From IMG/VR virus record IMGVR_UViG_3300030118_003168, positions 53,753 to 73,752 of that record: a DNA stretch of 20,000 bases; one strand, given 5' to 3'. How positions within the stretch are numbered: the stretch's first letter is position 1; every line of letters begins with the position of its first letter. A program made the position numbers and the translations under genes. Of this stretch, positions 3,001 through 19,931 are shown in pieces. The notes under the pieces are model-generated. The model did not search any database and was not told the DNA's origin. It saw only the letters and a program-made list of their open reading frames with translations. The DNA comes from an uncultured virus (IMG/VR IMGVR_UViG_3300030118_003168) (Duplodnaviria > Heunggongvirae > Uroviricota > Caudoviricetes).

Positions 3001-6000
3001 AGCACCCTTCAAACATACGGTTATCCTTCTACTTTCCCATTTATTATTGCTAGTGGAAATGTCTTTTCAACAGCCGCAAACGCACAATTAGTCGCAGGTA
3101 AATTCAATACAAATACTTCTCAAAATATACAGATTAGGAAAAAATCGGTTGATAGAATGTTTTTATTTGTTAATTCAGATGAGAACCCTTACCATGAAAA
3201 TAGATTAGACAGTTTGTGTAATCCTTTAAGAACCAGAAATATTTCTGATTATGGAATAGTTGGTTTATTGCCTCTCAAGAATACAAATACTCAAGATGAC
3301 AATAATCAAGATATAAACACCCAAAGACACACTAATGTAGATGAAGAATATTCTTTTTCTAATATTGTTTCTTCTGATAAAAGCATAAATTCTTTAATGA
3401 ATGTAGGTATTATGAGATTAACAGAAGTCGTAGTTGATTGGTCTTTTAATCAAATAGACCCCGAAGATATTCAAGATGAAATGATTACTGATGCGGCAGT
3501 AAAAGAAATTTTTACACCAATAACATTAGAAGAAGATGGTGTTGCGATTTATGCTCAAGCAGGAAGTTATAATGTAGGTGGCAACCCAAGCAGCATACAA
3601 TTTTATGATGCTCCTACTGGCGGAAATATTGTCAATTTCGCTTCAACCCTTGTAGAAGCGGGAGATGCTATAATTGCTGATGGAACAGGATTTTTAATTG
3701 GTTTTTGTTTAAACAACAACCCCAATTCATTAATGTCAGATGCTTTGTTTGCTAATTCAAGTAAAAGTGCATATTACATAGGAGAAGTTAAAAAAATTAA
3801 AAAGGCTAATATTGCAGGAAGCGATTTAAAAGGAAGACAAAAAGATACTTTCATGGGCTTTGATGATACATTAAGTATGTTAAGAACAGGATATTTCAAT
3901 AGTCCTGCCCATACTTCTACACAAAAGCAATTAGTTCTTGATAATAACTCATTGTTGCCTATTCATGCTCATAGCGGAGGTAGCACACCTGCTGAATCAT
4001 TAAGTTGGTTTGCTTTACAATTTAATGATAGTAACGGAAATAAAGTCGGTTTCTTTTTTTGGTTTAATGTAGAAAATTCTGACGGTAATCAAATAGATAC
4101 TATTCCTGCTGAATACGCTAACAATTTTTCGCCTCATTCCGATGGCATAACATATACTTCTGTTGAAATACAATTATCAAACGGATATAGTTCAACCGAC
4201 TTTCATGCGGCTTTAGCAACGGCTTTTGATTCTGTTAATTTAAGAACAAATCATGTTTTTGGCGGAAATCAAGCAAATGATTCTGATGCCGCTACTTATG
4301 GTGGAACAACGGTTACTCAATTAAGAACAAAAAGAGCCGCACCAAGTAATTTTTATCAAACCACTTCCACACTTAATCATCACCCCGATTCTACCGTTAC
4401 TACGGTAAATGTAGATATTACCGCAGATAATACAGGATGGGGTGGCAATCCAAGTGCATATTACAATAAATGGAGTGAGATTCTAGGAGGGCAAATAAAT
4501 AATTATGTTTCAATACCAAGAAAAGGAGGAACTTATTTACCAGTTTCTATTACAACTCAATATACTTCTACTCCTACATTTTATTCAGATATATTAACTA
4601 ATATTGCAGGCTCTCCTTTATCTACTTCTTTTGCTGATATTTCTACAACAGATGTTAATGAGTTAAAATATACTGATTTTATACCAGTAGCACTAAGAGG
4701 ATTTGTAATAGAAGACTCAAAAGGTAAAAAGAAAATAAATGCTGGCGAATCATTTCCTAAAATTAAATCACTATTTAGAAAAAATATTAGCAGTTCTCAT
4801 ACTATATTTGGTTTAACTTCAGAATACTCTACTTGGTTTAATAAATATAAATATTATATGGATGCAGGAGTAACAAAAGAAGAAAATGCAGATTTACCAA
4901 ATGAAGGGAATGGTTTAAAAATAGGATTTAAACCCAGATTAGATGCTTCTTTAGCGACTCTAATTTCAGGAACTCAAAGAAGTAATTCAGGAAATAGAAT
5001 ATATAATTATTCTTTTAATACTAATAATACTAAATTATCTTGGTTAAGAGATTTAGACTTAACTGGTTGTTATTTAGTTAGAGTAAGCGGAACTAATATT
5101 GATAATAACTATTTTGTAGAAGGCTTTGGTTTCGCCTATGTTATTTCACATGAAATAGACCCAAGCGATTCTAATAAAGTAATCTTAACTACTTCAACAA
5201 ATTTAGGCCCGAATACATATAGAATACTACAACCTAATCATACTTGTTTTTATGACTTTACTCCGACTCAAATAAATATAGGCCAACTTTCAAGTTCTTA
5301 TACAAAAAAGCCCAAGATAGATGAATGCTATGAAGATTCTTTGAAAAGCCATGCACTTGATGATGTAAGCATGGATAATGATAGTATTAACGACCAAGAA
5401 GCAATAGGTTCAGTATATGTTTTAATTGACTTAACAGGTGATGTTTCGTCTGGTGATAAAATAATAAATACTAGCATGAGAAGAGAATTTTTCGATAATT
5501 TACCCACTACAATTTGTTTAAGTGACGGAGAAGAAACTTTCAAAACAGGAATGCAATCTAACAGTTTTAGTCTTACATTTGATAGTCTGAAAGAATTAAA
5601 AGGAATAGTTAGCCTTAGTGAAATAATTACTTTAAATGTAGGGAAAAATTTTAACAAAGATAGCAAACGATGTTTGATAGGAAATACTGTAAATATTGTT
5701 CAAGAATCTGAAGAACTGGCTAAAAGTTTATTAGAAAAAGAAAACATAAGTTTCACTTCTATAAATGAACCTAGTTATCCTTTATTTACTGCTCCTAACT
5801 TTCAAGGAAATGATTTGTTATCCGCTACTAGATTTTTATTAGGTAAAAAAGATAGAGATATTGAAGTTATTGATGGTAATTTTGTGATTGATGATGAAGA
5901 AGCGACTAATAAATATGCAAATGTATTATTATCAGAAAACAGTAAATATCAAATATATGAATTTGAAAAACAAAAAACGACCTTTTCTTTCTATAATGAA

Positions 6001-6606
6001 GTCATTGTTTATGGTAGTTCGCATAAATCAATTAAAAAAGATTTACGAAGCGTTAAAAAGATAGGAAGAAAAACATTAGAAGTGTTTGATAATAAATTAA
6101 TTACTCAAGAAGATGTGGATAAAGAAGCAAGAGAACTATTGAAACTGCACTCTCAATTAAATGAGTCGTATAAAGTCACGGTATCAACAACGGGATTAGA
6201 ACAAATAAAAAGCGGAGACATAATACAATTTGAACTTAAAAGAGAAAATGTAGATAGAGATGAATATATTATATTATCCGTAGAACATAGACTCTCTAAT
6301 CTTATGGAATTAGAATTAGGAAAATATGCTAAATCATTGGATGATAGATTAGTAGAAATTTTACAGGAAACTAAAGATACTAAATCTCACTTAAGAAGTA
6401 AACAATTCGCTGAAAAAACAGAAACCATTGAAACCTTAGATACTATTAAAATTAAGGAAATAAGAACATTAATAAGAAAAAGAAGCACTACTGGAAATCC
6501 TCTCACGCTTGGCTTTGGAACAAATCTAAATACAAGTAGCGTTGAACTAGGATTTGAGGGTGGGCAAACTATCACGATTACAAATTTAAGGGAGGAAAAC
6601 ATATGA
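1..6606 (+). CDS. Very large virion tail protein with baseplate/tail hub-like segments; 5' end lies outside the window (>2200 aa)
   Basis: Frame 1 is open from base 1 (KFEPSLGNEINHGVKFKLFKGP...), so GTG at 166 is probably not the true start. Rich in N/S/T/G. Segment 'LNGTIEV...MRVEGRDIMSKIL' and C-terminal 'NEVIVYG...SVKKIGRKTLEVFDNKL...AREL...IKSGDII...YIILSVEH...ELELG' resemble phage tail hub proteins. Followed by tail fibre-like genes. Confidence 0.7.
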   Translation, partial: KFEPSLGNEINHGVKFKLFKGPAVNSDFISIGLGIKKDLQNSLQVARPYFWFNRDVNELESNTKHFIRVKEITVGTSLNLSTSSSDTTFLVSQNYANEIKDYGKFTLKTKLVDNLRNLDIEGFTPITFTGDMHAVNHPDEIRNITGISSGTINDLLYRGIVRNNVPDGTYVTEILSSNSIRISQNVTAAVSTTSFTVSHSNESHALASNDLTDYETSFFNARRDADDLILPSASNYTSRGPTRYLHYDFSKDKANYSYNVIDLKINESIKGKTSFSETQIADMMKIYPNKLELHSPMRARQRLSRDKLNKFVDTGLSVGANGMLTGNDGLGNQIVSVHIVNVNSYFTTGEEIKIEDRLYIILSINSGTNTITLLQADTTIDGSPNTYSRLETESSYTDIGTPTINVGDSVFRRAYSPFNKTLINSFDLISNRHEDLYLITTSQNATYNYFKCSAIDASNNLLTFTVNLDKYLEEGLHLNNDYYLYYEKLNGTIEVLDYYRTDGQSIMRVEGRDIMSKILSPVVNNDTLFSEDIIYSSFGTINHLEQIGFVEASFNSQVINIKDTSNVSASITLIAGDKLYVRSKSNFFKPLGTVLTGNTGNQFNLERESNVECGGDTFTNGGVFELYKAVKNGSQPVKNYIFNKALSSNILVDSVTSLSGSSNKGLYFTSGVSLNNLGNDDTPLVNTSSSTDSRAIGYHISKVSGDIDGADYQCVLGDGASTESHENILTINTLMDFSVISVKENDGGKIIEIAPYIPATLGRLESNLANNYDATKTSIGFTLGDALITDLQNFINVSSSDSSYVALSELFIRRNDSVFINDRFVGFALEQHLSENHCFIVLDRQVFYETGQTVTIIHNRFGLSKGTLGDGPSSDNKNTHELELINVGHLHGGKIISNVFDYESVNGLRTFDFGLKYNDGSEITSFEKFGNPSYAIYSLEKGDNTNYAASYKVNFHRDTYAKVKSRLVDSSNIYNHLPIEGRGFYTPTYSNFDDKQIGVSSTLQTYGYPSTFPFIIASGNVFSTAANAQLVAGKFNTNTSQNIQIRKKSVDRMFLFVNSDENPYHENRLDSLCNPLRTRNISDYGIVGLLPLKNTNTQDDNNQDINTQRHTNVDEEYSFSNIVSSDKSINSLMNVGIMRLTEVVVDWSFNQIDPEDIQDEMITDAAVKEIFTPITLEEDGVAIYAQAGSYNVGGNPSSIQFYDAPTGGNIVNFASTLVEAGDAIIADGTGFLIGFCLNNNPNSLMSDALFANSSKSAYYIGEVKKIKKANIAGSDLKGRQKDTFMGFDDTLSMLRTGYFNSPAHTSTQKQLVLDNNSLLPIHAHSGGSTPAESLSWFALQFNDSNGNKVGFFFWFNVENSDGNQIDTIPAEYANNFSPHSDGITYTSVEIQLSNGYSSTDFHAALATAFDSVNLRTNHVFGGNQANDSDAATYGGTTVTQLRTKRAAPSNFYQTTSTLNHHPDSTVTTVNVDITADNTGWGGNPSAYYNKWSEILGGQINNYVSIPRKGGTYLPVSITTQYTSTPTFYSDILTNIAGSPLSTSFADISTTDVNELKYTDFIPVALRGFVIEDSKGKKKINAGESFPKIKSLFRKNISSSHTIFGLTSEYSTWFNKYKYYMDAGVTKEENADLPNEGNGLKIGFKPRLDASLATLISGTQRSNSGNRIYNYSFNTNNTKLSWLRDLDLTGCYLVRVSGTNIDNNYFVEGFGFAYVISHEIDPSDSNKVILTTSTNLGPNTYRILQPNHTCFYDFTPTQINIGQLSSSYTKKPKIDECYEDSLKSHALDDVSMDNDSINDQEAIGSVYVLIDLTGDVSSGDKIINTSMRREFFDNLPTTICLSDGEETFKTGMQSNSFSLTFDSLKELKGIVSLSEIITLNVGKNFNKDSKRCLIGNTVNIVQESEELAKSLLEKENISFTSINEPSYPLFTAPNFQGNDLLSATRFLLGKKDRDIEVIDGNFVIDDEEATNKYANVLLSENSKYQIYEFEKQKTTFSFYNEVIVYGSSHKSIKKDLRSVKKIGRKTLEVFDNKLITQEDVDKEARELLKLHSQLNESYKVTVSTTGLEQIKSGDIIQFELKRENVDRDEYIILSVEHRLSNLMELELGKYAKSLDDRLVEILQETKDTKSHLRSKQFAEKTETIETLDTIKIKEIRTLIRKRSTTGNPLTLGFGTNLNTSSVELGFEGGQTITITNLREENI

Positions 6607-6942: not shown

Positions 6943-9081
6943 ATGACTGTAACAAACCCTAAATTTTTTGGACAAAGCACGACTGGAACTCCTAATCAAG
7001 TAGAAGATTCCGTAGATTTCCCGCATACTGGTTTATTAAAAGCATTAAGCACCGCTTCTTCAGGAAGATATGCTTTATCAGGATTTAATATTACACCCGC
7101 AGGAACAACTGGAATTACTGTTGCTGCTGGAGAAATTCTATATAACGGTAAAGTTACAACAGTTAATGGTGCTTCTCTTACTTTAAATGCTACTTACACA
7201 AATGGTTATCATTTACTTGTAGCACCAAGACCTACTAATGAAGACGGAAACGGAGCAACTCCATTAACTTCAACCGTTGTTCTAAGAAATCCTACTGCTG
7301 CAAATAAAGTGGCAGAATATACTTTAGGAGATACAATTATTGCAGTTATTACTCATACTGGTTCAGACCCTCATATTCAATATTTAACTTATGATAAAAC
7401 TTCTCAAGCGTTCAGTATTGCACATGATAATTCAATAGATGGAACAGGAACAACATATACCGAAATGGGAACTATTGAGGCTACTGCTACTGGAATAGTG
7501 ATTCAACAAGATTCTGCAACTAACTTAGGAAACATACAAATCAAAAACAATGACCAAGATAGAGATATTATTTTTACTATGGACGATGGAGGCGTTGAAA
7601 AATCAATTACATTAAATGCTGATATTGCTACTGCTCAATTTGGTGATTTCAGTATTACTACAAATGGCTCAGTAACCGCTAATGGAGTTACATTAACAGG
7701 TGGAGGAACAGTTACTAATCATGGTGCGGATAGATTAATTACTTCAGGAGCAGCAAATACAGATTTAATTGGTGAATCAAATTTAACATTTAATGGTTCA
7801 ACTAATACTTTAGCAGTTACAGGAGGAATTACTGGAACAACTCTTGAAACAACTGGTTTAATTACAACAACTGCAAATAACATTACTGCTCCTGCTGGTT
7901 CAGTTTCAGCAGTTTCAATTGGTGCTGGAACAAACGGATTATCTAATTTAGGTAAATATACTCAATCACAAGAATTAGCGGCTGATGCTGCTTCGGGATT
8001 TGGAATTACTACTCATGGTCATGTTAGTATATCAGAAGCATTAACACCCGCTAATCTAATTAATTGTTCTAAAGAACACTATTATGTTGGATTAGATACA
8101 CAAGCACAAGCGACTCATTCAGGTCAAGGAACTCCAATTTCACCCACAGGAATAAATGCTGTAACAGAATATGGATTATTAACAAAAGCAAATGAAGCAA
8201 ATAGGCTTGCTAGTGATGCACTTGCTCATACATATAATGTAGATGATGTATTTGGCGGCCATACTTTCTTTGTAGGGATTCAAAGACCTGAATCTCATGT
8301 AGGAGGAACAGTTAGTATTACTAACATTACTGCTTTTTATCTTTATGTTGTTGTAGGAAATGAATCTGCTGGTGACCCTTCATTATATGAACAAAGAAGA
8401 AGAATGAATGGAGGTCTTTGGAAATCTGTTCATACTGTTACTGGTTTTAATCATGTAGGAAATACTCGTTGTGTTAGTATGAGTAATATACTTCTTGGTG
8501 GTGCTTTACACACATCAACTTTTTATGATATTTCTACATCATTTGGCGGTGATTTAGATGCTATTTTAGTTAAACCAAGAGAAACAATTACCTTATCTTC
8601 TCTTGAAATAACAGGAGAAGGAGGCGGAACACACGGACATGATGTATTTCAAGAACAGGGTTTAGCACATGCACAAAGCGGAAATAACGGACAATGGTTT
8701 TTAAAAGGAGTTTCAGGAGGTTCAGGGTTTGCTCATGTAGTAAATATAACTGATGGTTTTTTGCATATTCCTGTTGCTATGACTGGAACAACTTTTATTT
8801 GCACAGGAACAAATCAAATACTATTACCTAATTCTCCGCCAATAGGGACACAATATTCTTTTTTGGTAAAAGCGGGAACAACTTCTTTAAATAGACCTGA
8901 CATAACTAGCGGCATTCCACCTACTAATTTTCATTTATGCCCATCAGCAGTTCAAAATGGGGGACAAGATGAATTTTATGAATTATCTTCATCTTCTTCT
9001 GCATCTCCATTAAGTATTACTGCTGGTAATGGTAAAACAGTAATTTATACATCAAGTCAAAATTGGGAAGTTATTGGGTGA
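6943..9081 (+). CDS. Putative tail fibre protein
   Basis: 712 aa, GAGGT at 6930-6934. G/T/A-rich low-complexity beta-type shaft (LTFNGSTNTLAVTGGITG) and a C-terminal 'ILLPNSPPIGTQYSF...KTVIY...NWEVIG' module typical of fibre tips. Tail-module context. Confidence 0.65.
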   Translation: MTVTNPKFFGQSTTGTPNQVEDSVDFPHTGLLKALSTASSGRYALSGFNITPAGTTGITVAAGEILYNGKVTTVNGASLTLNATYTNGYHLLVAPRPTNEDGNGATPLTSTVVLRNPTAANKVAEYTLGDTIIAVITHTGSDPHIQYLTYDKTSQAFSIAHDNSIDGTGTTYTEMGTIEATATGIVIQQDSATNLGNIQIKNNDQDRDIIFTMDDGGVEKSITLNADIATAQFGDFSITTNGSVTANGVTLTGGGTVTNHGADRLITSGAANTDLIGESNLTFNGSTNTLAVTGGITGTTLETTGLITTTANNITAPAGSVSAVSIGAGTNGLSNLGKYTQSQELAADAASGFGITTHGHVSISEALTPANLINCSKEHYYVGLDTQAQATHSGQGTPISPTGINAVTEYGLLTKANEANRLASDALAHTYNVDDVFGGHTFFVGIQRPESHVGGTVSITNITAFYLYVVVGNESAGDPSLYEQRRRMNGGLWKSVHTVTGFNHVGNTRCVSMSNILLGGALHTSTFYDISTSFGGDLDAILVKPRETITLSSLEITGEGGGTHGHDVFQEQGLAHAQSGNNGQWFLKGVSGGSGFAHVVNITDGFLHIPVAMTGTTFICTGTNQILLPNSPPIGTQYSFLVKAGTTSLNRPDITSGIPPTNFHLCPSAVQNGGQDEFYELSSSSSASPLSITAGNGKTVIYTSSQNWEVIG

Positions 9082-10057: not shown

Positions 10058-10207
10058 TCACTTAATGTTCTTATCTTCGCCCATTAAACGCTTCATGTAT
10101 TCTTCAACGCTTTCATCAGTAACCGAAGTTCCACCGAAAGCAGCGAAAAACAGAAGCATTAGAACGACGATGAAAACAAACAAGCCGAACCATTCCCAAC
10201 CAGTCAT
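10058..10207 (-). CDS. 49-aa single-pass membrane protein
   Basis: Hand translation: MTGWEWFGLFVFIVVLMLLFFAAFGGTSVTDESVEEYMKRLMGEDKNIK*. TAATG overlap with the exonuclease stop and a perfect GGAGGTGA at 10215-10222. Not in the ORF track. Confidence 0.8.
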   Translation of the reverse strand: MTGWEWFGLFVFIVVLMLLFFAAFGGTSVTDESVEEYMKRLMGEDKNIK

Positions 10208-10800
10208 TACCATTTCACCTCCAAATCTAAATATTCTCCTTTTTCAACCGAAAAGGCTTTTACAATTCCATTATTTTGTCCATACTGCCAAAGGTCATAG
10301 ACTAATTGTGTATCTTTCATACAATATTCAACTACTTCATCATACTGTCCCATTTTCCACAATTTAGGTGCATCTGCACTATCCATTAACTTAGCATCAT
10401 TCATAGTGCATTTAACAAGATTTTTTAATTGAAACCTTTCACCATGTTCTTTAAGCAACAACTTAGAAGTATCTATATATTTTTCTTCACTAAGATATTT
10501 ATTAATACAGAATATATCCATAGAATCCCTAAGAATAGGTAAATCAAATGCAACAATGTTATGTCCTAATAATAGACCTCCTTTTTGCAAATGCTCATCT
10601 AAGTCATATTTGAGTTCTCTAAGAGATTTAACTATGTGTCCTGATTTAGCAAAAGAATTTACTGGTTCATCAACATAAACTGTTCCAGTATTACCATCCC
10701 AAGTAGCAACAGTAGATACTTGAAACATATGAGTATTACCGAAACCACCAATATCATAAGACATATTTTTGGTTTCTAAGTCAATTGCTAAAATTGACAT
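10207..10800 (-). CDS. DEDDy 3'-5' exonuclease (RNase H-like, YprB/RNase_H_2-type)
   Basis: ExoI 'ILAIDLET', ExoII 'GHNIVAFDLPIL', ExoIII 'EYCMKDTQLV'; AGGTGA at 10807-10812. Confidence 0.85.
   Translation of the reverse strand: MSILAIDLETKNMSYDIGGFGNTHMFQVSTVATWDGNTGTVYVDEPVNSFAKSGHIVKSLRELKYDLDEHLQKGGLLLGHNIVAFDLPILRDSMDIFCINKYLSEEKYIDTSKLLLKEHGERFQLKNLVKCTMNDAKLMDSADAPKLWKMGQYDEVVEYCMKDTQLVYDLWQYGQNNGIVKAFSVEKGEYLDLEVKW
10215..10222 (-). promoter_or_regulatory. Archaeal-type Shine-Dalgarno GGAGGTGA (representative of many sites)
   Basis: (A/G)GGTGA also lies just upstream of starts at 10807-10812, 11040-11045, 12570-12575, 19152-19157 (- strand) and 9076-9081 (+ strand); GGAGGT at 13258-13263 (- strand). 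Confidence 0.8.
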
Positions 10801-10802
10801 AT

Positions 10803-11033
10803 TTACTCACCTGAATTAGACCAAAGTTTACTAATTTTTTCTTCCTCTTTATCTACTTTAGGTTCTTCATCTACATCTGTTCTTCGCTTTAAGAAGCAAA
10901 CAATCTGCTTATTTGCTACAATTAATTGGGAACAACATTCCCAACCATCGTCACCATAAGTATTTAATGTGTCAATAATTACTTTTGGCCCTTTTGCTAC
11001 TTCAAATACTAGATATGTGTTTTCCCATTTCAT
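10803..11033 (-). CDS. DUF4177-like small protein
   Basis: 'MKWENTYLVF...DTLNTYGDDGWECCS...VCFLKR' matches the KWEY...LN.lG.eGWElv...fKR pattern of DUF4177; ATGA overlap and SD present. Confidence 0.7.
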   Translation of the reverse strand: MKWENTYLVFEVAKGPKVIIDTLNTYGDDGWECCSQLIVANKQIVCFLKRRTDVDEEPKVDKEEEKISKLWSNSGE

Positions 11034-12565
11034 TCGTCATCACCTTTTTTCAGTCTAATATATTTAGAACGACTAATATACATTTCTTCAAATCTATGTT
11101 CTACATTCCCAAAATGTCTGTAAATTTGTGCTTGAGATTTCTTGGCTTTCTCTTTAATTGCTTTGAAATACAATGTTTTATTGACATAACCTTCTTCATC
11201 TTTCTCCATGTTGTTATAAACATTAATAAAGACTGACTCTAGCGAATTTTCAGCAATACTATGTCGCTTAACCCGTAGGCTTCGCTCTAACCAATCAACC
11301 AATGTCATATAACATTGTCGGACAATCGTAGCCGCTTGACGGACATTATGCCCCGAAACATTGAATCTTTGGCTTTTATCTTTGATTGATGGAGCAGAAG
11401 CAACGCTACAAAGAACAGACATTTTAATGAGAATTTTAAGCAAACGGGTAGTAAAATTTGCTGCAATTTCAGCAACTTCGCCTCTTGTGTTCCAAAGATA
11501 GTTATTCATATTTTGATACTCTAACTTCAAAACATCATTGAAATCAGGAGAATAAGTCATAACATTGAGAACATTACCTCCGACTTCATTATATCTTTCT
11601 TCAACTAATTCGTAAATTTTGAAAATAGCATTAGCAAATCTTTCAACTGGTTGATTAACTTCTTCTAATGTTCCTGCTTTTTCAATTTGCTCTAATCTCA
11701 TTTTATGCTGAATAAATTTAGGAACTTCCCAAACATATAAAAGCATTCTTTGAAGAACACCTTTTTCAGCCATTACTTCGTTTAGATTACTTGGAGGATA
11801 AGTCATAGCAATTACTGAACGCTCACAAAAACATTCCATAATTTTATTATCATAAGAAGTCAAAGCCTTAGATATTATCCATGATTCACCTGCCAATGTA
11901 TTCATTAAAGTATTAAGATAAACAATTGCTTTATCTTGATGTTGGCTTTGCTTAAAAATACCAGAATATTCAAATTCATCCCAATGGGCTAATCCGCTTC
12001 CTTCAAGCAATCCAGCGTTTCTTTTTGGTTTCATTTCTCCTGTCCACTTTTCTTCAAAGGTTTCTTCATTAACTTCCATTACTTTTTCTTCTCCCCAATT
12101 ACCAATCAATACTGAATCTGTATAATCTGTTATACCGAAAGTATCAAACTTTCTTTCCATAATATCATCAACATGAGGATTATCTGAATTTGTTTTTAGT
12201 GAAGGATGATTTCCTTTACCATTAATCAATTCAAATGTTTTGTTAGCAACTGGCCCAACAAAATTCCATAATGTTGATTTTCCTGTTCCGCTTGTTTGAA
12301 CCCAACAAAAATGCACTCTTGAATCTTCAATGTTTCTTCCGTTTGGTATTTGTATAAAATCTTTACAGACCTGTCCTAAAATATTAAAGAAAGAAATTGC
12401 TGCTGGTATTTCATTATAATGAGATACTTCAACTGCTGAGGTTTGAAACTCTCTAACAATTGCAGGAAGGGCTTCACTAAATGCAATAGCATTTTCTTCT
12501 AAAGCCTCCAAATACTCATCTTCAACTTCTTCTCCATATAGTTCTTCGTTATATTCATTACTCAT
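11030..12565 (-). CDS. MCM-like/DUF3987-like AAA+ ATPase, probable replicative helicase
   Basis: Walker A 'QTSGTGKST', Walker B 'GLAHWDEFE', arginine-finger-like 'GVLQRML', sensor-2-like 'TTRLLKILIKMS', MCM-like closing helix 'VSGHNVRQAATIV', possible C-terminal winged helix. Confidence 0.7.
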   Translation of the reverse strand: MSNEYNEELYGEEVEDEYLEALEENAIAFSEALPAIVREFQTSAVEVSHYNEIPAAISFFNILGQVCKDFIQIPNGRNIEDSRVHFCWVQTSGTGKSTLWNFVGPVANKTFELINGKGNHPSLKTNSDNPHVDDIMERKFDTFGITDYTDSVLIGNWGEEKVMEVNEETFEEKWTGEMKPKRNAGLLEGSGLAHWDEFEYSGIFKQSQHQDKAIVYLNTLMNTLAGESWIISKALTSYDNKIMECFCERSVIAMTYPPSNLNEVMAEKGVLQRMLLYVWEVPKFIQHKMRLEQIEKAGTLEEVNQPVERFANAIFKIYELVEERYNEVGGNVLNVMTYSPDFNDVLKLEYQNMNNYLWNTRGEVAEIAANFTTRLLKILIKMSVLCSVASAPSIKDKSQRFNVSGHNVRQAATIVRQCYMTLVDWLERSLRVKRHSIAENSLESVFINVYNNMEKDEEGYVNKTLYFKAIKEKAKKSQAQIYRHFGNVEHRFEEMYISRSKYIRLKKGDDE

Positions 12566-14568: not shown

Positions 14569-15474
14569 TCACAACCATGTGTCTTCATTTGCAGCATCAC
14601 AAATACCAAAGTAAGAACAATGAGAACAAGTCTTATAATAAAACTTAGTTTCAAAATGTTTCTGTTCATAAGAATGTATTAACTTAGCAATATTGTTCAT
14701 AACCGAAGTTTTTGTTCTTTTCTTAACAGGTTCAACAGTAATATGATTAGCAACGGGATAATACCAACCCCAATGACTTACTTCTAAGTCAGAAGTTAAT
14801 CCATGTTTGGTTAAGATTTCTTCAGGAGCATTTTCAAGCATTAATTGATAAAATGCCATTTCTTGTCTCATTGAAGTTTTCTTCCAGTCTTTCCATCCAC
14901 CTGTTTTATATTCAAAAGGAATAAGTTTGCCGTCTTCAATGAATACTCGGTCAATAATACCTTGAAGTCTAACAACATAATCTCTTTGTAATGGAAACTT
15001 GGGATTCGTATTTCTAGGGATAGTTAATTCACAATCAAACATTTTTTCGTTAATTATAGGTAAAAACTCATGTGTTCTCCCTTCACTTTTTGCTTCAATA
15101 AATCGCTGTGCTTCAAAAGCAGCAACAGTTAAAGAAACATCAAAGTATTCATCAACGGGCATTAAACTTGTTGCATACTCCATAATTTCTGAATTATTCA
15201 TGGAATCGGCTTTCTTAATATCAAATTCATCAAAAAAGGCTTCTCTATGATTATGTAATATAGTTCCTTTACGCATGGCTTCCGTTTGGTCTTGAGGTAA
15301 TCTCTCAATATAACTAAACTCATACTTTTTAGGACACCAATTAAAAGAACCTAATGAAGACTTGCTTATCTTTAAGATAGGCTTAGAAGGGTCTTCAAAT
15401 GCTTCTGCATCCCATTGATATGTAAATTCTCTCATTGACTTTAATCTTGCTTCGTATTGTTCATCTTTACTCAT
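14569..15474 (-). CDS. Stand-alone Cas4-like PD-(D/E)XK (RecB-family) nuclease with probable Fe-S cluster
   Basis: 'SKSSLGSFNWCPKKY', 'GTILH', 'GIIDRV', 'EYKTG', 'QEMAFY' and C-terminal 'CSHCSYFGIC' give the 1+3 cysteine arrangement of Cas4/AddB. Confidence 0.85.
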   Translation of the reverse strand: MSKDEQYEARLKSMREFTYQWDAEAFEDPSKPILKISKSSLGSFNWCPKKYEFSYIERLPQDQTEAMRKGTILHNHREAFFDEFDIKKADSMNNSEIMEYATSLMPVDEYFDVSLTVAAFEAQRFIEAKSEGRTHEFLPIINEKMFDCELTIPRNTNPKFPLQRDYVVRLQGIIDRVFIEDGKLIPFEYKTGGWKDWKKTSMRQEMAFYQLMLENAPEEILTKHGLTSDLEVSHWGWYYPVANHITVEPVKKRTKTSVMNNIAKLIHSYEQKHFETKFYYKTCSHCSYFGICDAANEDTWL

Positions 15475-15477
15475 ATT

Positions 15478-16371
15478 TTACCACCACTCATCAAGGCTCG
15501 TTTGTGTATATCCTGTGCGTATGGACGATATATCCCAACCCATCGCCTTGTAAATAGGTTCGGCTTTCTTTACTACTTGTTCAGCATAGTGCTTCCAATC
15601 GGGAATATAACCTTCAAAATCCTTTTTAGTTATGCCCGATATGTATTCAACATCTTTTCTTTCTTGCGTTAAAGGATGAATAAATGAATTACAAAAGCCC
15701 ATTACTTTGATAAATAAATAAGAGTCATCAAAATTAGTGTCATTTTTTTGCCAAGCGTATAAAACTCCAGCAATACCTGAACCAATTGACGGTTTTTTTC
15801 CTTCAAGTGTAGTAAATTTGCTTGTTTCTGTTGCACATTTTTTACAGACAGAATGTTTTAGTTCTAAACATTCCTTCAAATGATATTTTGCTTTACATTC
15901 TGGGCATTTTACTGTGAATCTGGAAGGTCTTAAACGACTTCTCTTAATGATTGAATCAATATTAATTTTACCATTAATAACCTTTTGATATGTTTCAAAA
16001 AGATATTTATTGATTTCTGCCTGTGTTTTTTCTCCAACCCACATTTTAAGAACATTAGTTTGAACTTCCTTTGCTAATTTAGTTTCACTCACTCTTTTAG
16101 CAGTAAATCCTGTCATTGTGAACTTTGGCTCATCAAGCCATTCTCCATCTTCCCAAGATACTAAACCAGCATTTCTGTTTTTTGTTGTTCCTACACCTAA
16201 TGCTGAAAAATACTTTTCAAATTCTAATACTACTGGGTGTTCTTTTAATCCCATAACATTAGGAAAGTGTTCTCTTACTGATGCTTCAATTTCTTTAATC
16301 GCTGTTTGAGCAGTTTCTACGGAATCAATTTGCACATAGATAGAATCGGTATGTCCATAAACTACTTTCAT
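15478..16371 (-). CDS. polB: Family B DNA polymerase, C-terminal subunit (motif C, palm remainder, thumb, PIP box)
   Basis: Begins MKVVYGHTDSIYV (motif C variant), then 'LEFEKYF', 'KNRNAG', 'MTGFTAKR', 'PDWKHYAEQVVKKAEPI'; ends QTSLDEWW (PIP box). Confidence 0.92.
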   Translation of the reverse strand: MKVVYGHTDSIYVQIDSVETAQTAIKEIEASVREHFPNVMGLKEHPVVLEFEKYFSALGVGTTKNRNAGLVSWEDGEWLDEPKFTMTGFTAKRVSETKLAKEVQTNVLKMWVGEKTQAEINKYLFETYQKVINGKINIDSIIKRSRLRPSRFTVKCPECKAKYHLKECLELKHSVCKKCATETSKFTTLEGKKPSIGSGIAGVLYAWQKNDTNFDDSYLFIKVMGFCNSFIHPLTQERKDVEYISGITKKDFEGYIPDWKHYAEQVVKKAEPIYKAMGWDISSIRTGYTQTSLDEWW

Positions 16372-16375
16372 AATA

Positions 16376-16582
16376 TCACTTTAACCAACTAAACATTATT
16401 CCAACTGGCTGATTAGCCATTTTTGCTACTTCTTCTTGTAATTCACGAATACATCTTTTAAGATTACCATTCACATCATTTTGCTCAATTTGATAATCCA
16501 AGTCTTTTTCTAATCCGTTAATTCTTTGCTTGAGGGCTTTTATTTCCCTTTTTAGTTCTTTAATTTCTTCCTTTTCTTTCAT
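16376..16582 (-). CDS. Small coiled-coil protein
   Basis: 68 aa with heptad pattern (IKELKREIKALKQRINGLEKDL); ATGA-coupled to the upstream ORF. Confidence 0.7.
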   Translation of the reverse strand: MKEKEEIKELKREIKALKQRINGLEKDLDYQIEQNDVNGNLKRCIRELQEEVAKMANQPVGIMFSWLK

Positions 16583-16710
16583 ATTACCACCGTAATTATT
16601 GTTATAATGGTTGCTATGTTTACGATATTTACCATCATTAATATCTTATTTGACCTTGCTATCATAGCCAGCAATTCTTCTAATAACTCATTTGTTCTGT
16701 CCATCATCAT
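16579..16710 (-). CDS. 43-aa protein with C-terminal hydrophobic/transmembrane segment
   Basis: Hand translation: MMMDRTNELLEELLAMIARSNKILMMVNIVNIATIITIITVVI*; stop overlaps the next start (ATGA). Exact start Met uncertain. Not in the ORF track. Confidence 0.65.
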   Translation of the reverse strand: MMMDRTNELLEELLAMIARSNKILMMVNIVNIATIITIITVVI

Positions 16711-16939
16711 TGTAATCCACCGAATCATTTAGAATTTTCACATTACCCGCAACCTGAACATTATTATTTCCAATTGCAATTTGTGAAGTAGAATTGACTC
16801 CTTGTTCAACGCCTAAGATAATAGCATTACGCTTTAGATTATTCATCATCTGAAATATCTCTTTTACTTCTTGTAATGTTATTTCCCATGTTTCTTCGGT
16901 ATCATACGATACTTTAACTGTTACTATTTTTGTTCTCAT
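16688..16939 (-). CDS. Hypothetical protein (83 aa)
   Basis: Starts 1 nt after the upstream stop, with GAGGA upstream; no recognisable motif. Confidence 0.65.
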   Translation of the reverse strand: MRTKIVTVKVSYDTEETWEITLQEVKEIFQMMNNLKRNAIILGVEQGVNSTSQIAIGNNNVQVAGNVKILNDSVDYNDDGQNK

Positions 16940-16940
16940 T

Positions 16941-17156
16941 TTAAATCCTCACATATGTTCTTCTTCCTCTATTCATATCTTTAGATATGATATTATCTTT
17001 ACGATTCAAATACCATCCTATTGCACTATTATCTGCTACAAAAGTAGTTCCTCTTTCAGAAACTAACTGTTCTCTAACAGTAGTGGCAAGAAATTCATGC
17101 CCTACTGGATATTCAGAAACAATTGAATCAATCCATCTTTTAACATGACTATTCAT
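16941..17156 (-). CDS. Hypothetical protein (71 aa), possibly winged-helix
   Basis: ATGA-coupled, AAGGAG upstream; helix-helix-helix then beta-hairpin pattern ending GRRTYVRI. Fold is a guess. Confidence 0.6.
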   Translation of the reverse strand: MNSHVKRWIDSIVSEYPVGHEFLATTVREQLVSERGTTFVADNSAIGWYLNRKDNIISKDMNRGRRTYVRI

Positions 17157-17284
17157 CCAAATCTCTCCTTATGTCCACATTTAGGGCACTCATATACTGC
17201 TTTTTCTTTTGCAGAACTATATCCATACCCTTTAGGTTTATAATATTTACAAACTAATTCTTCTTTACATACTATACATTTCAT
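17153..17284 (-). CDS. 43-aa zinc-ribbon protein (CxxC-x26-CxxC)
   Basis: Hand translation: MKCIVCKEELVCKYYKPKGYGYSSAKEKAVYECPKCGHKERFG*; ATGA overlaps at both ends. Not in the ORF track. Confidence 0.8.
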   Translation of the reverse strand: MKCIVCKEELVCKYYKPKGYGYSSAKEKAVYECPKCGHKERFG

Positions 17285-17496
17285 ATTTCCATCTCCTTAT
17301 TTATTTTATTTTTCAAAGCAAATTTAATATTTTTAATAAAACTTTGTTGGGCTTTTTTAGACATTTTAGTTATGTGAAACCCTTCACAAAATTCACAATA
17401 ATAAAAGTTTAATTTGATGTTTTCTAACTCCTTTGCTTTCTTTTGATATTTTCTTGCTAAAGAAGCATTAGGGTAAATTACTTTACCACATCTCAT
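17281..17496 (-). CDS. Small basic Zn-binding protein (C...CxxC...H)
   Basis: 'MRCGKVIY...A...YYCEFCEGFHITK' resembles a common small phage protein pattern (C.K..Y...Y.C..C.gwHlT); ATGA overlap with the polB-N stop. Confidence 0.7.
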   Translation of the reverse strand: MRCGKVIYPNASLARKYQKKAKELENIKLNFYYCEFCEGFHITKMSKKAQQSFIKNIKFALKNKINKEMEI

Positions 17497-17510
17497 ACTT
17501 CCATCTCCTT
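17281..17510 (-). repeat. 18-bp direct repeat AAGGAGATGGAA(G/A)TATGA at 17493-17510 and 17281-17298
   Basis: + strand tcatacttccatctcctt versus tcatatttccatctcctt, one mismatch; each copy encodes KEME(V/I)* and supplies the SD plus ATGA start of the next ORF. Confidence 0.9.
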
Positions 17511-19145
17511 TGCCTTAAATGCCGCTAATCTAATTGCTTCTCTTGCACTTGCAGTAATTGATGCGGCTAAATTAACATTAGCCCAACCAAATCCTTGAAA
17601 TGCAACGATACCGTAAAAAGAAGCCATTAAACGCTTAACTGCCATTTGATTGTTATACCACTTCGCATAATCTCCCGTTCCTCTTGCTTCTCTCATAAGT
17701 CGCTTATATTCGTTTCGCAACTCCTTAAGTTCCAATACTGCTCTCGGTAATAATCCAAGTTCATCAGTTTTGAAGTAAATCATTTGTTTTCTAGTAGTTT
17801 CACTAAAATCTCTTGGTGTTAAGATATTAACTGCAAATTCTGTTGGTTCTTCACTAATTGTTTCCCAACTGATATTACGAGCAATCATCATACTAGGATA
17901 TAGACCTGCAAAATCAAAAGCAGCAACATTAAGATGTAATCCATTTGTTTCTTCACTTAATGGGTCATAAATCATAGCACCTTCATATTCTTCTCTTTTA
18001 TCCACTTTACTTCCTGTTGGTGCTTTCCACCAAGCATTACGCATAAAGTAAATAGAACCCATATGAGAAGCATAGAAACAAGCATCAAATGGTGCTTTTA
18101 GCAATCTTTGTAATGAAAGAATTGCTTCACTACAAAAGTTTGTTTCATCAATTTCAACAATCAATTCAACATCTTTTAGAGCATACTCAAGATAAGTTTC
18201 CGTATCTTCTAACCAAGCACGACGATAAAATTCATTTGTATCTGGGAACTTTTCCGATACTAACTTCTTTTTACCAAGAACCATTTCACCGATATAATCT
18301 AATGACATTGATGGTAATGTTCCTCTTTGAGAATCATTCCATTGTCTTTCAAATGCTAAATCTAATGAAAGCGTAATTCGCCCACCAATAGGTTGTTCAA
18401 TCGGACTAAATCCATTCTCCGCATAAGCAAAAGAAAATCCGTCCTTTGTCTTTTTAATACCCTTAACATACCCAATAGGCGACATAATGCAAGGATTCAA
18501 TCCTACTGCACACGCTCTTTCTAATAACTTAGGAATATCAGCAAAATTACCAAACCAAGCAATTAACATATCTGGGTCTTTTATAATCATTGTAGTCATA
18601 AAAGATTCAATCATATCTTTTTCATTATCAAAAACAAAATGATGAAACGATTGATTTATTTTCTGTTCAATGAATTGTTCTTCAGGAAACCATACCCATT
18701 GGTAGTATGCTTCATCGTAATTGTCATAAACAACAATTGTAGTCAATTGGTCGTGATATTCTCCGCCTTGTTGCCATTCCATATCCCAATACCATTTACG
18801 CATATTATATTCGGGCATTTCATGTAATTCATCTACACAATATCTAAAGTGTAAAGGAACATCTGCTTCATAGGTTTTACCAAATATCTTCTTTGCTTCT
18901 CTAATATCATTTGCTGAATCTACTAAAACTTTCTTTAGTGGTTCTTTATCAAGATTAACCCAATCACCACGAATATAATCAAAATCTCTAGTAATATATT
19001 TAGAAGCATTATACGCTGGCGGTTCATGCGCTTCTTCATCCACATAGAAATAGGGTTGAAAATTAACCAATTCAAACTTTTTTTCACCATTTTCCCTCCA
19101 TGATTTATAAATAGTTCTACCATCATTCATCTTGTTAATTATCAT
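17493..19145 (-). CDS. polB: Family B DNA polymerase, N-terminal subunit (N-domain, 3'-5' exonuclease, motifs A and B)
   Basis: 'YEADVPLHFRYCVD', ExoI 'WDMEW', ExoII 'WFGNFAD', ExoIII 'YALKDV', 'YEGAMI', motif A 'DFAGLYPSMM', motif B 'QMAVKRLMASFYG', 'AASITASARE'; stops just before motif C. Confidence 0.95.
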   Translation of the reverse strand: MIINKMNDGRTIYKSWRENGEKKFELVNFQPYFYVDEEAHEPPAYNASKYITRDFDYIRGDWVNLDKEPLKKVLVDSANDIREAKKIFGKTYEADVPLHFRYCVDELHEMPEYNMRKWYWDMEWQQGGEYHDQLTTIVVYDNYDEAYYQWVWFPEEQFIEQKINQSFHHFVFDNEKDMIESFMTTMIIKDPDMLIAWFGNFADIPKLLERACAVGLNPCIMSPIGYVKGIKKTKDGFSFAYAENGFSPIEQPIGGRITLSLDLAFERQWNDSQRGTLPSMSLDYIGEMVLGKKKLVSEKFPDTNEFYRRAWLEDTETYLEYALKDVELIVEIDETNFCSEAILSLQRLLKAPFDACFYASHMGSIYFMRNAWWKAPTGSKVDKREEYEGAMIYDPLSEETNGLHLNVAAFDFAGLYPSMMIARNISWETISEEPTEFAVNILTPRDFSETTRKQMIYFKTDELGLLPRAVLELKELRNEYKRLMREARGTGDYAKWYNNQMAVKRLMASFYGIVAFQGFGWANVNLAASITASAREAIRLAAFKAKEMEV

Positions 19146-19151
19146 TGTTAT

Positions 19152-19931
19152 TCACCCATTTACTGTTGGGGCTTTTAGTAGCATTCTATCATTTGCAACT
19201 AATAAAAGCGGAAATTCATCTTTCATATAAACATTAATCATTTGGTCTTTTTCAAAGAAAGCATAAACTGGACTACTAAATTCAACAGTCGCAGGTTCTC
19301 CCATAGGAAATACAGGAGTAATCGTTTCTTCGTATTTATTTGTGACATTTTCTCTTGAAGATACTGTCAAGAGACTTTCATTGTAATCAAACTTATAGAC
19401 ACCATTTTTAACCAATTCACAATTTTTGATTGCTGATTGTAATTGCGGTTGAGTTAGAGTAAATGCTCCCTCAAATGAGGATTTGCCAAAACCAAACAAT
19501 GTTTGCGGTTGTATTTCATACCTAACATGATTTAACATATTTTTAATTCTAACCAAAGCCGCATCACTTGGATGATTAACGACTATTGGGATAGAGGCTT
19601 TTTTATTTGCGCCATTGAGTGCAATAAAATCACCTACATTGAAAGTTACAATGTCTCCAAAAGTTTTCAAATAAGGCAATAAAGTAGTGGTATCAACCAC
19701 ACAAGTTCCTTCTACTATTCTTGTATTGATTTCTTCATCTAACTGAATATCAAGTTTTACAAAGAAAGTATTGTTTCCATTCCAAATACTGAGAATATTA
19801 TCCTCAATAATAAGCATAACATAAGAACCAAGCGAAGTATTACCAAAACCACTATTTGTGCTTCCTTTACCTTTAACTTGAATACTTGTTAATGCTTTAC
19901 TTAGTTTATCACACTCTACTGTAAATATCAA
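19152..19931 (-). CDS. pcn: Probable PCNA-like DNA sliding clamp
   Basis: 259 aa with a two-fold repeated strand-helix-strands pattern typical of PCNA; directly upstream of polB, whose C-subunit ends in a PIP box. TTG start overlapping the upstream TGA. Sequence is divergent. Confidence 0.7.
   Translation of the reverse strand: MIFTVECDKLSKALTSIQVKGKGSTNSGFGNTSLGSYVMLIIEDNILSIWNGNNTFFVKLDIQLDEEINTRIVEGTCVVDTTTLLPYLKTFGDIVTFNVGDFIALNGANKKASIPIVVNHPSDAALVRIKNMLNHVRYEIQPQTLFGFGKSSFEGAFTLTQPQLQSAIKNCELVKNGVYKFDYNESLLTVSSRENVTNKYEETITPVFPMGEPATVEFSSPVYAFFEKDQMINVYMKDEFPLLLVANDRMLLKAPTVNG

Follow-up and report, generated by a model that had tools for sequence, protein, structure and literature searches.

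The family B DNA polymerase (PolB) of Methanothermobacter is encoded by two genes, PolB1 and PolB2, which are unlinked in the genome and whose products assemble into a two-piece enzyme, and the PolB of Nanoarchaeum uses a split intein. Here we describe a viral locus that resembles these cases in that an archaeal PolB is divided between two polypeptides at a point close to motif C, but that has no intein. The locus lies in the final 20 kb (20,000 nucleotides, hereafter the window) of a linear 73,752-bp IMG/VR virus record (IMGVR_UViG_3300030118_003168; completeness estimate, 78%). The N-terminal and C-terminal pieces of the polymerase, polB-N and polB-C, are encoded by separate open reading frames (ORFs), and the gap of 1121 bp between them (16372–17492) holds six small ORFs, termed g1 to g6.

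The closest described systems are those of magroviruses, which have heads and tails and are attributed to archaea of Marine Group II (Philosof 2017, PMC5434244). The accessible parts of that report describe seven group B magroviruses with a split DNA polymerase (DNAP) gene, in which the break falls within the catalytic domain, near the places at which other archaeal polymerases are split or harbor inteins but not precisely at them; the split is treated there as unique among archaeal viruses and as a group marker, and the legend of Fig. S3 gives the halves gene numbers 0–5 apart. The locus studied here shares with the split DNAP of group B1 magroviruses the type of virus, the replication module, contigs of ~95 kb and a split inside the catalytic domain, and, judged from its sequence, it appears to carry the mark of that group, a catalytic-domain split within the replication module. 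The initial annotation of the window had suspected that the split alone may not be new; this is borne out by Philosof 2017, where it had already been published for this virus group, so that the split as such is no novelty. The main text and searchable supplements of Philosof 2017 contain no description of intervening genes, of a conserved core formed by g4–g6, of cassettes or of nuclease cargo, and the accessible parts of a 2023 magrovirus survey likewise do not describe the intervening genes.

Outside archaeal viruses, the two polymerase pieces of Aeromonas phage 25, gp43A and gp43B, co-purify in active form (Petrov, Ratnayaka and Karam 2010, reported in the accessible parts of Edgell 2010, PMC2988022). 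According to the same source, phages 25 and 44RR encode a related PolB of the T4/halovirus lineage as two cistrons, which are separated either by a gene for a seg-type endonuclease or by an insert that is not translated; neither a conserved core of small genes nor a cassette array is reported there. The essential, replication-related nrdA gene of phage Aeh1 was cut by the free-standing homing endonuclease gene mobE, and its pieces reassemble without splicing (Friedrich 2007; Crona 2011, PMC3045599). As far as the accessible text of these papers goes, the new tails made by the insertion in Aeh1 are essential for assembly, whereas the window polymerase has no extra tails and has gained one residue; the endonuclease gene between the pieces, which Aeh1 has and which characterizes such "genes in pieces", is absent from the window. 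Finally, short, conserved motifs with regulatory roles at gene borders, termed PeSLs, have been proposed to mediate the acquisition and loss of small genes in the hyperplastic regions of T4-type phages (accessible parts of PMC2839356 and PMC4122927). These are described as promoter plus stem-loop units found genome-wide, in contrast to the motif reported below, a Shine–Dalgarno (SD) and stop/start coupling signal that duplicates the terminus of a single gene and is restricted to one slot.

A family B polymerase cut before motif C

Comparison with protein family profiles revealed that the matches of the two pieces are continuous with each other. PF00136 (DNA_pol_B) matched polB-N over profile positions 37–193 (2.9e-20, 73 bits) and polB-C over 222–361 (2.3e-08, 33.7 bits); phrog_262 was covered by polB-N from 17 to 560 (1.2e-67) and by polB-C from 574 to 763, and TIGR00592 (NCBIfam) by polB-N up to 944 and by polB-C from 947. 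polB-N additionally matched PF03104 (2.6e-06; 27.4 bits against a cut-off of 23). The arrangement that defines family B DNA polymerases, a 3′–5′ exonuclease domain followed by the polymerase domain, is thus distributed over the two pieces. polB-N aligned with residues 11–525 of Deep Vent polymerase, its residue 541 corresponding to residue 525 of the solved chain, and polB-C aligned with residues 692–832 of yeast Pol delta. No further PF00136 match beyond the two halves was found in the 73.7-kb record.

The only fused relative among the longer proteins, which is also the nearest unsplit relative, was a protein of 800 aa (P0001). Alignment of its junction sequence, AFKSQELGYTVIYGHTDS, with AFKAKEMEV* / MKVVYGHTDS of the window revealed that nothing is lost at the cut and that one residue is gained. 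The cut is positioned four residues ahead of the motif C Tyr, in the linker directly before the beta-strand leading into motif C. The consensus sequences of the polymerase motifs are DxxSLYPS for motif A, KxxxNSxYG for motif B and YGDTDS, with two Asp, for motif C. Motif A (DFAGLYPS, D411–S418, 17892–17915) and the motif B region (KRLMASFYG, K504–G512, 17610–17636) are located on polB-N, where D411, L415–S418, K504, Y511 and G512 are invariant in an alignment of 38 sequences, and motif C is located on polB-C. PHROG 2062 (N-type) gives way to PHROG 1918 (C-type) near polB-N residue 488–490, before motif B and ~60 residues upstream of the window cut; if these represent gp43A and gp43B, as we assume, the T4-type polymerase is cut elsewhere. 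These data agree with the initial annotation, which had described a clean split before motif C with nothing lost, motifs A and C on different polypeptides and no intein remnants.

In archaea and phages, motif C of PolB is a frequent site of inteins and introns (accessible parts of Philosof 2017 and Edgell 2010), and the halves might therefore be joined again post-transcriptionally or post-translationally, through an intron, a split intein or ribosomal bypass. We consider such rejoining very improbable. The search for introns gave no Rfam match at E up to 1 across 15300–19300, and Pfam detected no HINT, intein or LAGLIDADG/endonuclease domain in polB-N, polB-C or the six gap ORFs. polB-N aligned to its last residues and polB-C from residue 2–3, and these end-to-end alignments leave no room for intein fragments. 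Moreover, polB-C starts with M-K-V-V and has no Cys, Ser or Thr after the start, and the gap genes are conserved coding sequence.

It is hardly credible, by comparison, that the arrangement reflects a broken gene or a misassembled contig. The window is indeed a metagenomic assembly, and in one related locus (L057) the N half is cut short by an early stop (...NEFYRRA*), perhaps because of a sequencing error or because this copy is broken; the same architecture, however, was found in 84 contigs from many samples, with both halves under purifying selection (see below). Independent Logan contigs also bridge the junctions, so that the junctions are backed by sequencing, a check for misassembly that the initial annotation had called for. 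Contigs of run X1, which may be the source sample, match exactly and bridge both junctions (15543–16626 and 16657–17553), and a contig of run X2, from the same study, spans 17258–17518.

Motif C itself deviates from the consensus. It reads YGHTDS (16342–16359, minus strand): the first Asp of the canonical DTD is replaced by His and the second is retained, a detail on which the initial annotation had not remarked. This change from Asp to His was common to every split relative and to all 43 unsplit relatives; two split loci (L129 and L131) have YAHTDS, and the polymerase of halovirus VOLN27B has YGDTDS. In the polB-C alignment, Y5, H7, T8, D9, S10, Q290 and W296 were invariant (Q290 and W296 in 35 sequences). 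polB-C further contains a Cys4 insert of ~38–45 aa (~15787–15927, minus strand; CxxC...CxxC formed by C156, C159, C176 and C179), which is present in the main split clade but which neither the unsplit relatives nor the split loci L129 and L131 possess. polB-C ends in the eight residues QTSLDEWW (15481–15504, minus strand), which fit Qxx[LIM]xx[FYW][FYW], which we take to be the PIP-box pattern; if this PIP-like tail is real, clamp binding would be located on the small piece.

Age and selection of the split

A search for related stretches found 570, from which 80 loci were kept; 64 of these reach both halves and 16 end before the C half, and many are near-duplicates. The cut site was the same in 64 of 64 loci (...AKE[ML]xx* / M[KE]VVYGHTDS); YGHTDS did not vary among them, and their gaps ranged from 474 to 2819 bp. 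L057 was excluded from later counts, which refer to 64 rows, namely the window and 63 loci. A second scan, seeded with P0001, yielded 79 loci (43 unsplit, 20 split and 16 partial), and the 20 further split loci are cut at the same residue, down to ~40% identity with P0001. The gap of the divergent split locus L131 measures only 247 bp and contains a single 83-aa ORF, and that of L129 measures 549 bp and contains two ORFs.

A quick maximum-likelihood tree (LG+G4) was calculated from the N region after 142 rows had been thinned to 67 representatives (49 split and 18 unsplit, counting as split the rows whose contig stops shortly past the N half). Split and unsplit sequences were separated by one branch (Shimodaira–Hasegawa-like approximate likelihood ratio support, SH-aLRT, of 100) with one state change. 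The split probably arose once and has been retained through deep divergence.

Differences at the first, second and third codon positions amounted to 0.181, 0.113 and 0.391 in polB-N and to 0.236, 0.161 and 0.466 in polB-C, indicating purifying selection on both halves; amino-acid divergence was 0.206 and 0.301, respectively. In most loci an SD-like GTGAT or GGTGAT lies ahead of the polB-C ATG.

Conserved small genes in the gap

The six gap ORFs were confirmed to be co-oriented and translationally coupled, as initially annotated (Table 1). ATGA overlaps of 4 nt join polB-N with g1, g1 with g2, g2 with g3, and g5 with g6; the other junctions consist of a 1-nt spacer (g3/g4), an overlap (g4/g5), in which the start of g5 overlaps the conserved DDGQNE end of g4, and a 4-nt spacer (g6/polB-C).

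The clustering of all gap ORFs of at least 25 aa in the 64 rows resulted in 57 clusters, 24 of which occurred in one locus only. Three clusters formed a core: g4 and g5 were each present in 64 of 64 rows and g6 in 60 of 64, and the smallest gaps of the set (474 bp, L025 and L043) consist of g4, g5 and g6 alone. g3 was semi-conserved, being present in 44 of 64 rows and fused with g4 in two loci (L077 and L053). The initial annotation had regarded all six ORFs as cargo; this description holds for g1 and g2, and the conservation of g4, g5 and g6 means that three of the six are not cargo. Gene content between the halves, compared across the 64 rows, was accordingly invariant or nearly so in the core and variable in the slot preceding it.

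Codon-position differences were 0.158, 0.071 and 0.346 in g4 and 0.14, 0.077 and 0.317 in g5, and amino-acid divergence was 0.20 and 0.139; this strong excess at the third position combined with low divergence indicates that both are real and strongly constrained genes. By these measures, g4 and g5 are conserved at least as strongly as the polymerase. The g4 family comprises 494 homologous clusters, all unnamed and without Pfam; g4 itself had no Pfam or NCBIfam match, and an Atlas search gave no usable match. For g6, only weak matches to coiled-coil Pfam families and a match to phrog_5105 (function unknown) were obtained.

An AlphaFold2 model of a natural g3–g4 fusion (predicted local distance difference test, pLDDT, of 85.9) showed g3 as helix-helix-helix-hairpin. 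A Foldseek search with the model returned nothing at E ≤0.001, and its weak matches (E ~0.01) were all winged-helix regulators; g3 is therefore described here as a predicted winged-helix protein. Homology of g3 to the gap proteins of cluster c8, L131 and L129 was also considered. The hhalign probability was 6.9%, and the idea of one winged-helix gene as the ancestral insert was dropped for this reason.

The conservation of g4, g5 and g6 raises the question of whether they, together with g3, serve the two-piece polymerase as accessory subunits or help it to assemble. Such a role would fit the divergence of g4 and g5, which compares with 0.206 in polB-N, and the absence of g4 from all four whole unsplit magrovirus records, two of them 100% complete; in the unsplit locus L104, moreover, a g4 homolog (7852–8004) immediately precedes the intact polB and is ATGA-coupled to it. 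g4–g6 are, however, missing from the split loci L129 and L131, homologs of g5 lie ~6 kb upstream of polB, beside a clamp-loader-like gene, in eight unsplit loci, and no fold or family ties g3–g6 to polymerases. We therefore regard an accessory role as unlikely. g4, g5 and g6, often preceded by g3, are probably ordinary conserved operon genes and not cargo. In L104, seven small ORFs follow one another, with the g4 homolog at the end of the series, and the g5 homolog (2092–2229) lies two ORFs ahead of a 301-aa ORF that is clamp-loader-like by sequence alone.

A variable slot after the polB-N stop

Analysis of the distribution of inserts longer than 60 bp revealed a strong bias toward one position. 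Such inserts were found in none of 63 rows between the 259-aa ORF and polB-N, in 59 of 64 between polB-N and g4, in 10 of 60 between g6 and polB-C, and in 23 of 60 between polB-C and the Cas4-like gene. The inserts between the polB-N stop and g4 had 39 distinct lengths, up to 2132 bp, in the 64 rows. The proposal that the break point acts as a landing site for accessory genes thus stands only for the position directly after the polB-N stop.

The contents of this slot include zinc-ribbon-like mini-proteins (clusters c3, c4, c6 and c29); g2 belongs to c4, a variable cargo cluster present in 15 of 64 rows. Larger cargo was also found, that of L136 and L145 in a scan of 22 of the 31 listed ORFs of at least 95 aa, duplicates having been dropped. 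HNH genes were detected as c17 in L058, L069 and L070 (PF01844, 28.8 bits), in L136 (21.6 bits against a cut-off of 21.4) and as c39 in L022 (HNH family phrog_1271, 1.9e-6); c45 in L066 matched MUG113/T5orf172 (49.8 bits) and phrog_18411 "homing endonuclease" (2.5e-4), and c19 in L076, L078 and L080 matched CoiA_N (41.7 bits). In 9 of the 84 split loci, a nuclease-type gene thus immediately follows polB-N (three with c17, three with c19, one each with c39 and c45, and L136). In L145 the cargo between the halves is a complete N6_N4 DNA methylase gene (10466–11239; PF01555, 6.8e-54).

A second variable slot lies between polB-C and the Cas4-like gene (window 15475–15477). The 23 occupied loci hold one or two helical ORFs of ~50–86 aa there, and these are unrelated to the gap ORFs. 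In the unsplit locus L104, an HNH endonuclease gene (10394–10879) overlaps the polB stop, and the Cas4-like gene downstream appears as two ORFs of 66 and 235 aa.

Repeat-bounded cassettes

The 18 nt at the end of polB-N are repeated at the end of g1 (Table 1). Allowing for up to three mismatches, these two copies were the only matches in the window (0.05 expected) and the only two in the 73.7-kb genome. The closest relative (L001, 94% identical in polB-N) exhibits an exact 212-bp deletion comprising g1 and one repeat copy. A contig of run X5, from another study, contains a g1-less join from 17286 to 17499, and several other joints in runs X1, X2 and X6 have one side exactly at 17493. g1 is a mobile cassette, present or absent as a precise 212-bp indel flanked by the 18-nt direct repeat. 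Homologs of g1 were found only in L054, L057 and L167, and closer relatives of the window lack it. L167 contains three tandem copies of the 18-mer, 152 and 212 nt apart, which enclose a 51-aa ORF and g1; its identity with the window is 83% in g1 and only 77% in polB-N.

Comparison among loci extended this pattern to other cargo. The first non-core ORF after polB-N ended in a copy of its own locus's polB-N end (a match of at least 15 of 21 nt) in 16 of 53 cases, involving 10 of 19 unrelated clusters; the same match occurred at 4 of 318 other gap ORF ends and at 33 of 6492 background ORF ends. The similarity extends over ~17–23 nt, stops abruptly upstream and usually follows the local ATG or TTG variant. 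As a consequence of the copied polB-N terminus, unrelated cargo proteins end in KEMEV-like tails. In the slot between polB-C and the Cas4-like gene, the terminal repeat was found in 0 of 23 loci. An integron-like array would combine an integrase with attI/attC recombination sites; repeat-bounded cassette arrays are present here, and no integrase family was detected among the 19 window ORFs scanned by profile.

The terminal repeat might alternatively be a coupling signal only, composed of SD, short spacer and ATGA and required of every gene that is set ahead of another, in a hyperplastic gap that is filled by illegitimate recombination. The first 8–9 nt of the motif are SD-like, 37 of the 53 first cargo ORFs are without the repeat, and the slot between polB-C and the Cas4-like gene gains genes without it, all of which speaks for this alternative. 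This alternative fits less well with the other coupled ORF ends in the same gaps, of which only the 4 in 318 match, or with the copying of the spacer and codons as well, mostly in the locus's own variant. Nor does it readily explain KEMEV-like tails on unrelated proteins or an indel of 212 bp bounded exactly by the repeat. On balance we find it rather doubtful, and favor the reading of the repeat-bounded units as cassettes.

Genomic context

The window has a GC content of ~32%. From 19931 down to 10207, its minus strand carries an uninterrupted string of co-oriented genes that includes the split polymerase (Table 1). The stand-alone DEDD exonuclease in this string is additional to the exonuclease domain within polB-N of the same module. 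The other end of the window is occupied by a giant ORF of at least 2201 aa (1–6606, plus strand), which extends beyond the first position of the window and for which Pfam gave no match at E 0.001; the three ORFs that come after it (112, 712 and 252 aa) likewise lack Pfam families. The 259-aa ORF was considered as a candidate PCNA-like clamp, which was not supported, as it had no Pfam, NCBIfam or PDB sequence match.

Table 1 Features of the split polymerase locus and its module, in gene order
Feature	Coordinates	Strand	Description
259-aa ORF		−	First gene of the module, upstream of polB-N; no family assigned
polB-N	17493–19145	−	550 aa, ends AKEMEV*; exonuclease domain, motif A and motif B region
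Junction repeat, copy 1	17493–17510	−	AAGGAGATGGAAGTATGA; SD-like AAGGAG, last polB-N codons and ATGA stop/start overlap
g1	17281–17496	−	71 aa, Cys/His-containing, ends KEMEI*; phrog_15216 (function unknown), 3.3e-4
Junction repeat, copy 2	17281–17298	−	AAGGAGATGGAAATATGA; end of g1
g2	17153–17284	−	43 aa, CxxC...CxxC, zinc-ribbon-like; only sub-threshold Pfam zinc-finger matches
g3	16941–17156	−	71 aa, predicted winged-helix; semi-conserved, fast evolving
g4	16688–16939	−	83 aa here, 56–57 aa typical; conserved core, unnamed family
g5	16579–16728	−	Conserved start probably MMMD at 16710, giving 43 aa; hydrophobic C-terminal tail
g6	16376–16582	−	68 aa, coiled-coil-like; position conserved, sequence fast evolving
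polB-C	15478–16371	−	297 aa, starts MKVVYGHTDS; motif C, rest of palm, thumb
PD-(D/E)XK Cas4-like nuclease		−	Next after polB-C; profile match
Primase-like (AEP-primase-like) protein		−	After the Cas4-like gene; phrog_16345
XPF/ERCC4-HhH nuclease		−	After the primase-like gene; profile match
511-aa ORF		−	After the ERCC4-HhH gene; no family match
DEDD exonuclease, stand-alone	10207–10800	−	phrog_403 "DNA polymerase exonuclease subunit", 2.6e-10

Relatives of the locus were located on viral contigs of 94–97 kb. These contigs and the gene neighbors match the description in Philosof 2017, and the window probably represents the replication module of a virus that infects marine archaea and is head-tailed and magrovirus-like. 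The phage GenBank collection contained no close relative, the top match, to haloviruses and cyanophages, having 25% identity. Predicted sigma-70 promoters (25 versus 21.6 expected) and terminators (3 versus 1.8 expected) were at the level of chance in scans whose models do not cover archaeal signals. No RNA run was listed as containing the sequence of 15400–19200.

Discussion

We propose that this virus produces its replicative PolB as two separately translated polypeptides, a large one with the exonuclease domain and motifs A and B, and a small one with motif C, the thumb and a PIP-like tail. A single cut site in 84 split relatives, purifying selection and the retention of all catalytic motifs, motif C in its His form, argue for a two-chain polymerase, as do the SD-like GTGAT and ATG before polB-C and the lack of any other PolB in the record. 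We infer that the two polypeptides assemble into one enzyme, as the split gp43A/43B of Aeromonas phage 25 do. Small genes without promoters would enter and leave the slot after the polB-N stop as cassettes, each ending in an 18–21-nt copy of the polB-N terminus, by which translational coupling would be kept; the repeat may at the same time offer the short homology for cassette recombination. Taken together, a fixed two-piece PolB with a conserved core of small genes and a cassette slot is in our judgment the probable explanation of the locus.

Several observations weigh against parts of this explanation. A His in motif C is unusual for an active enzyme, although it is common to the 43 unsplit relatives. 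Near-duplicates among the loci mean that locus counts overstate the number of independent events. The terminal repeat is present in only the 16 of 53 first cargo ORFs and is missing from the nuclease-type clusters c17 and c19, and the slot between polB-C and the Cas4-like gene varies without it, so that genes can be inserted where there is no repeat; moreover, SD and ATGA signals, which selection for coupling could recreate, make up about half of the repeat. Furthermore, the window gap contains no free-standing homing endonuclease or other nuclease according to Pfam and PHROG.

The last point bears on the origin of the cut, which may have come about, as with nrdA and mobE of Aeh1, through an endonuclease-driven insertion beside the highly conserved DNA of motif C. 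This is a conjecture: the homing-type nuclease cargo fits an endonuclease origin of the split and is no proof of it, because the window has no nuclease, only 9 of 84 loci have one, and the simplest gaps, those of L131 and L129, are without.

As far as our literature searches show, the hot spot at this slot and its repeat appear to be undescribed; they represent a moderate addition to what is known, and not a new kind of system. What is added here is the anatomy of the gap, namely a conserved trio of tiny genes within an essential gene of an abundant ocean virus, and a repeat-bounded hot spot, precise to the single nucleotide, at which strains exchange accessory genes. As a natural two-piece PolB with a His in motif C and a clamp-binding-like tail, the enzyme would also provide a test case for the assembly of split polymerases.

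A further step can be put forward tentatively, and at somewhat less than an even chance: the stop/start junction of polB-N may be a miniature cassette-acquisition site, in which the same 18–21-nt motif serves both as ribosome hand-over and as insertion homology. If true, zinc ribbons, homing-type nucleases and a DNA methylase would be inserted, stacked and deleted at this site and all be expressed with the viral replicase, which would amount to an integron-like logic without an integrase, placed inside an essential split gene. If the repeat is a recombination site, it would show how archaeal viruses can shuffle small genes without uncoupling their translation from that of a highly expressed operon.

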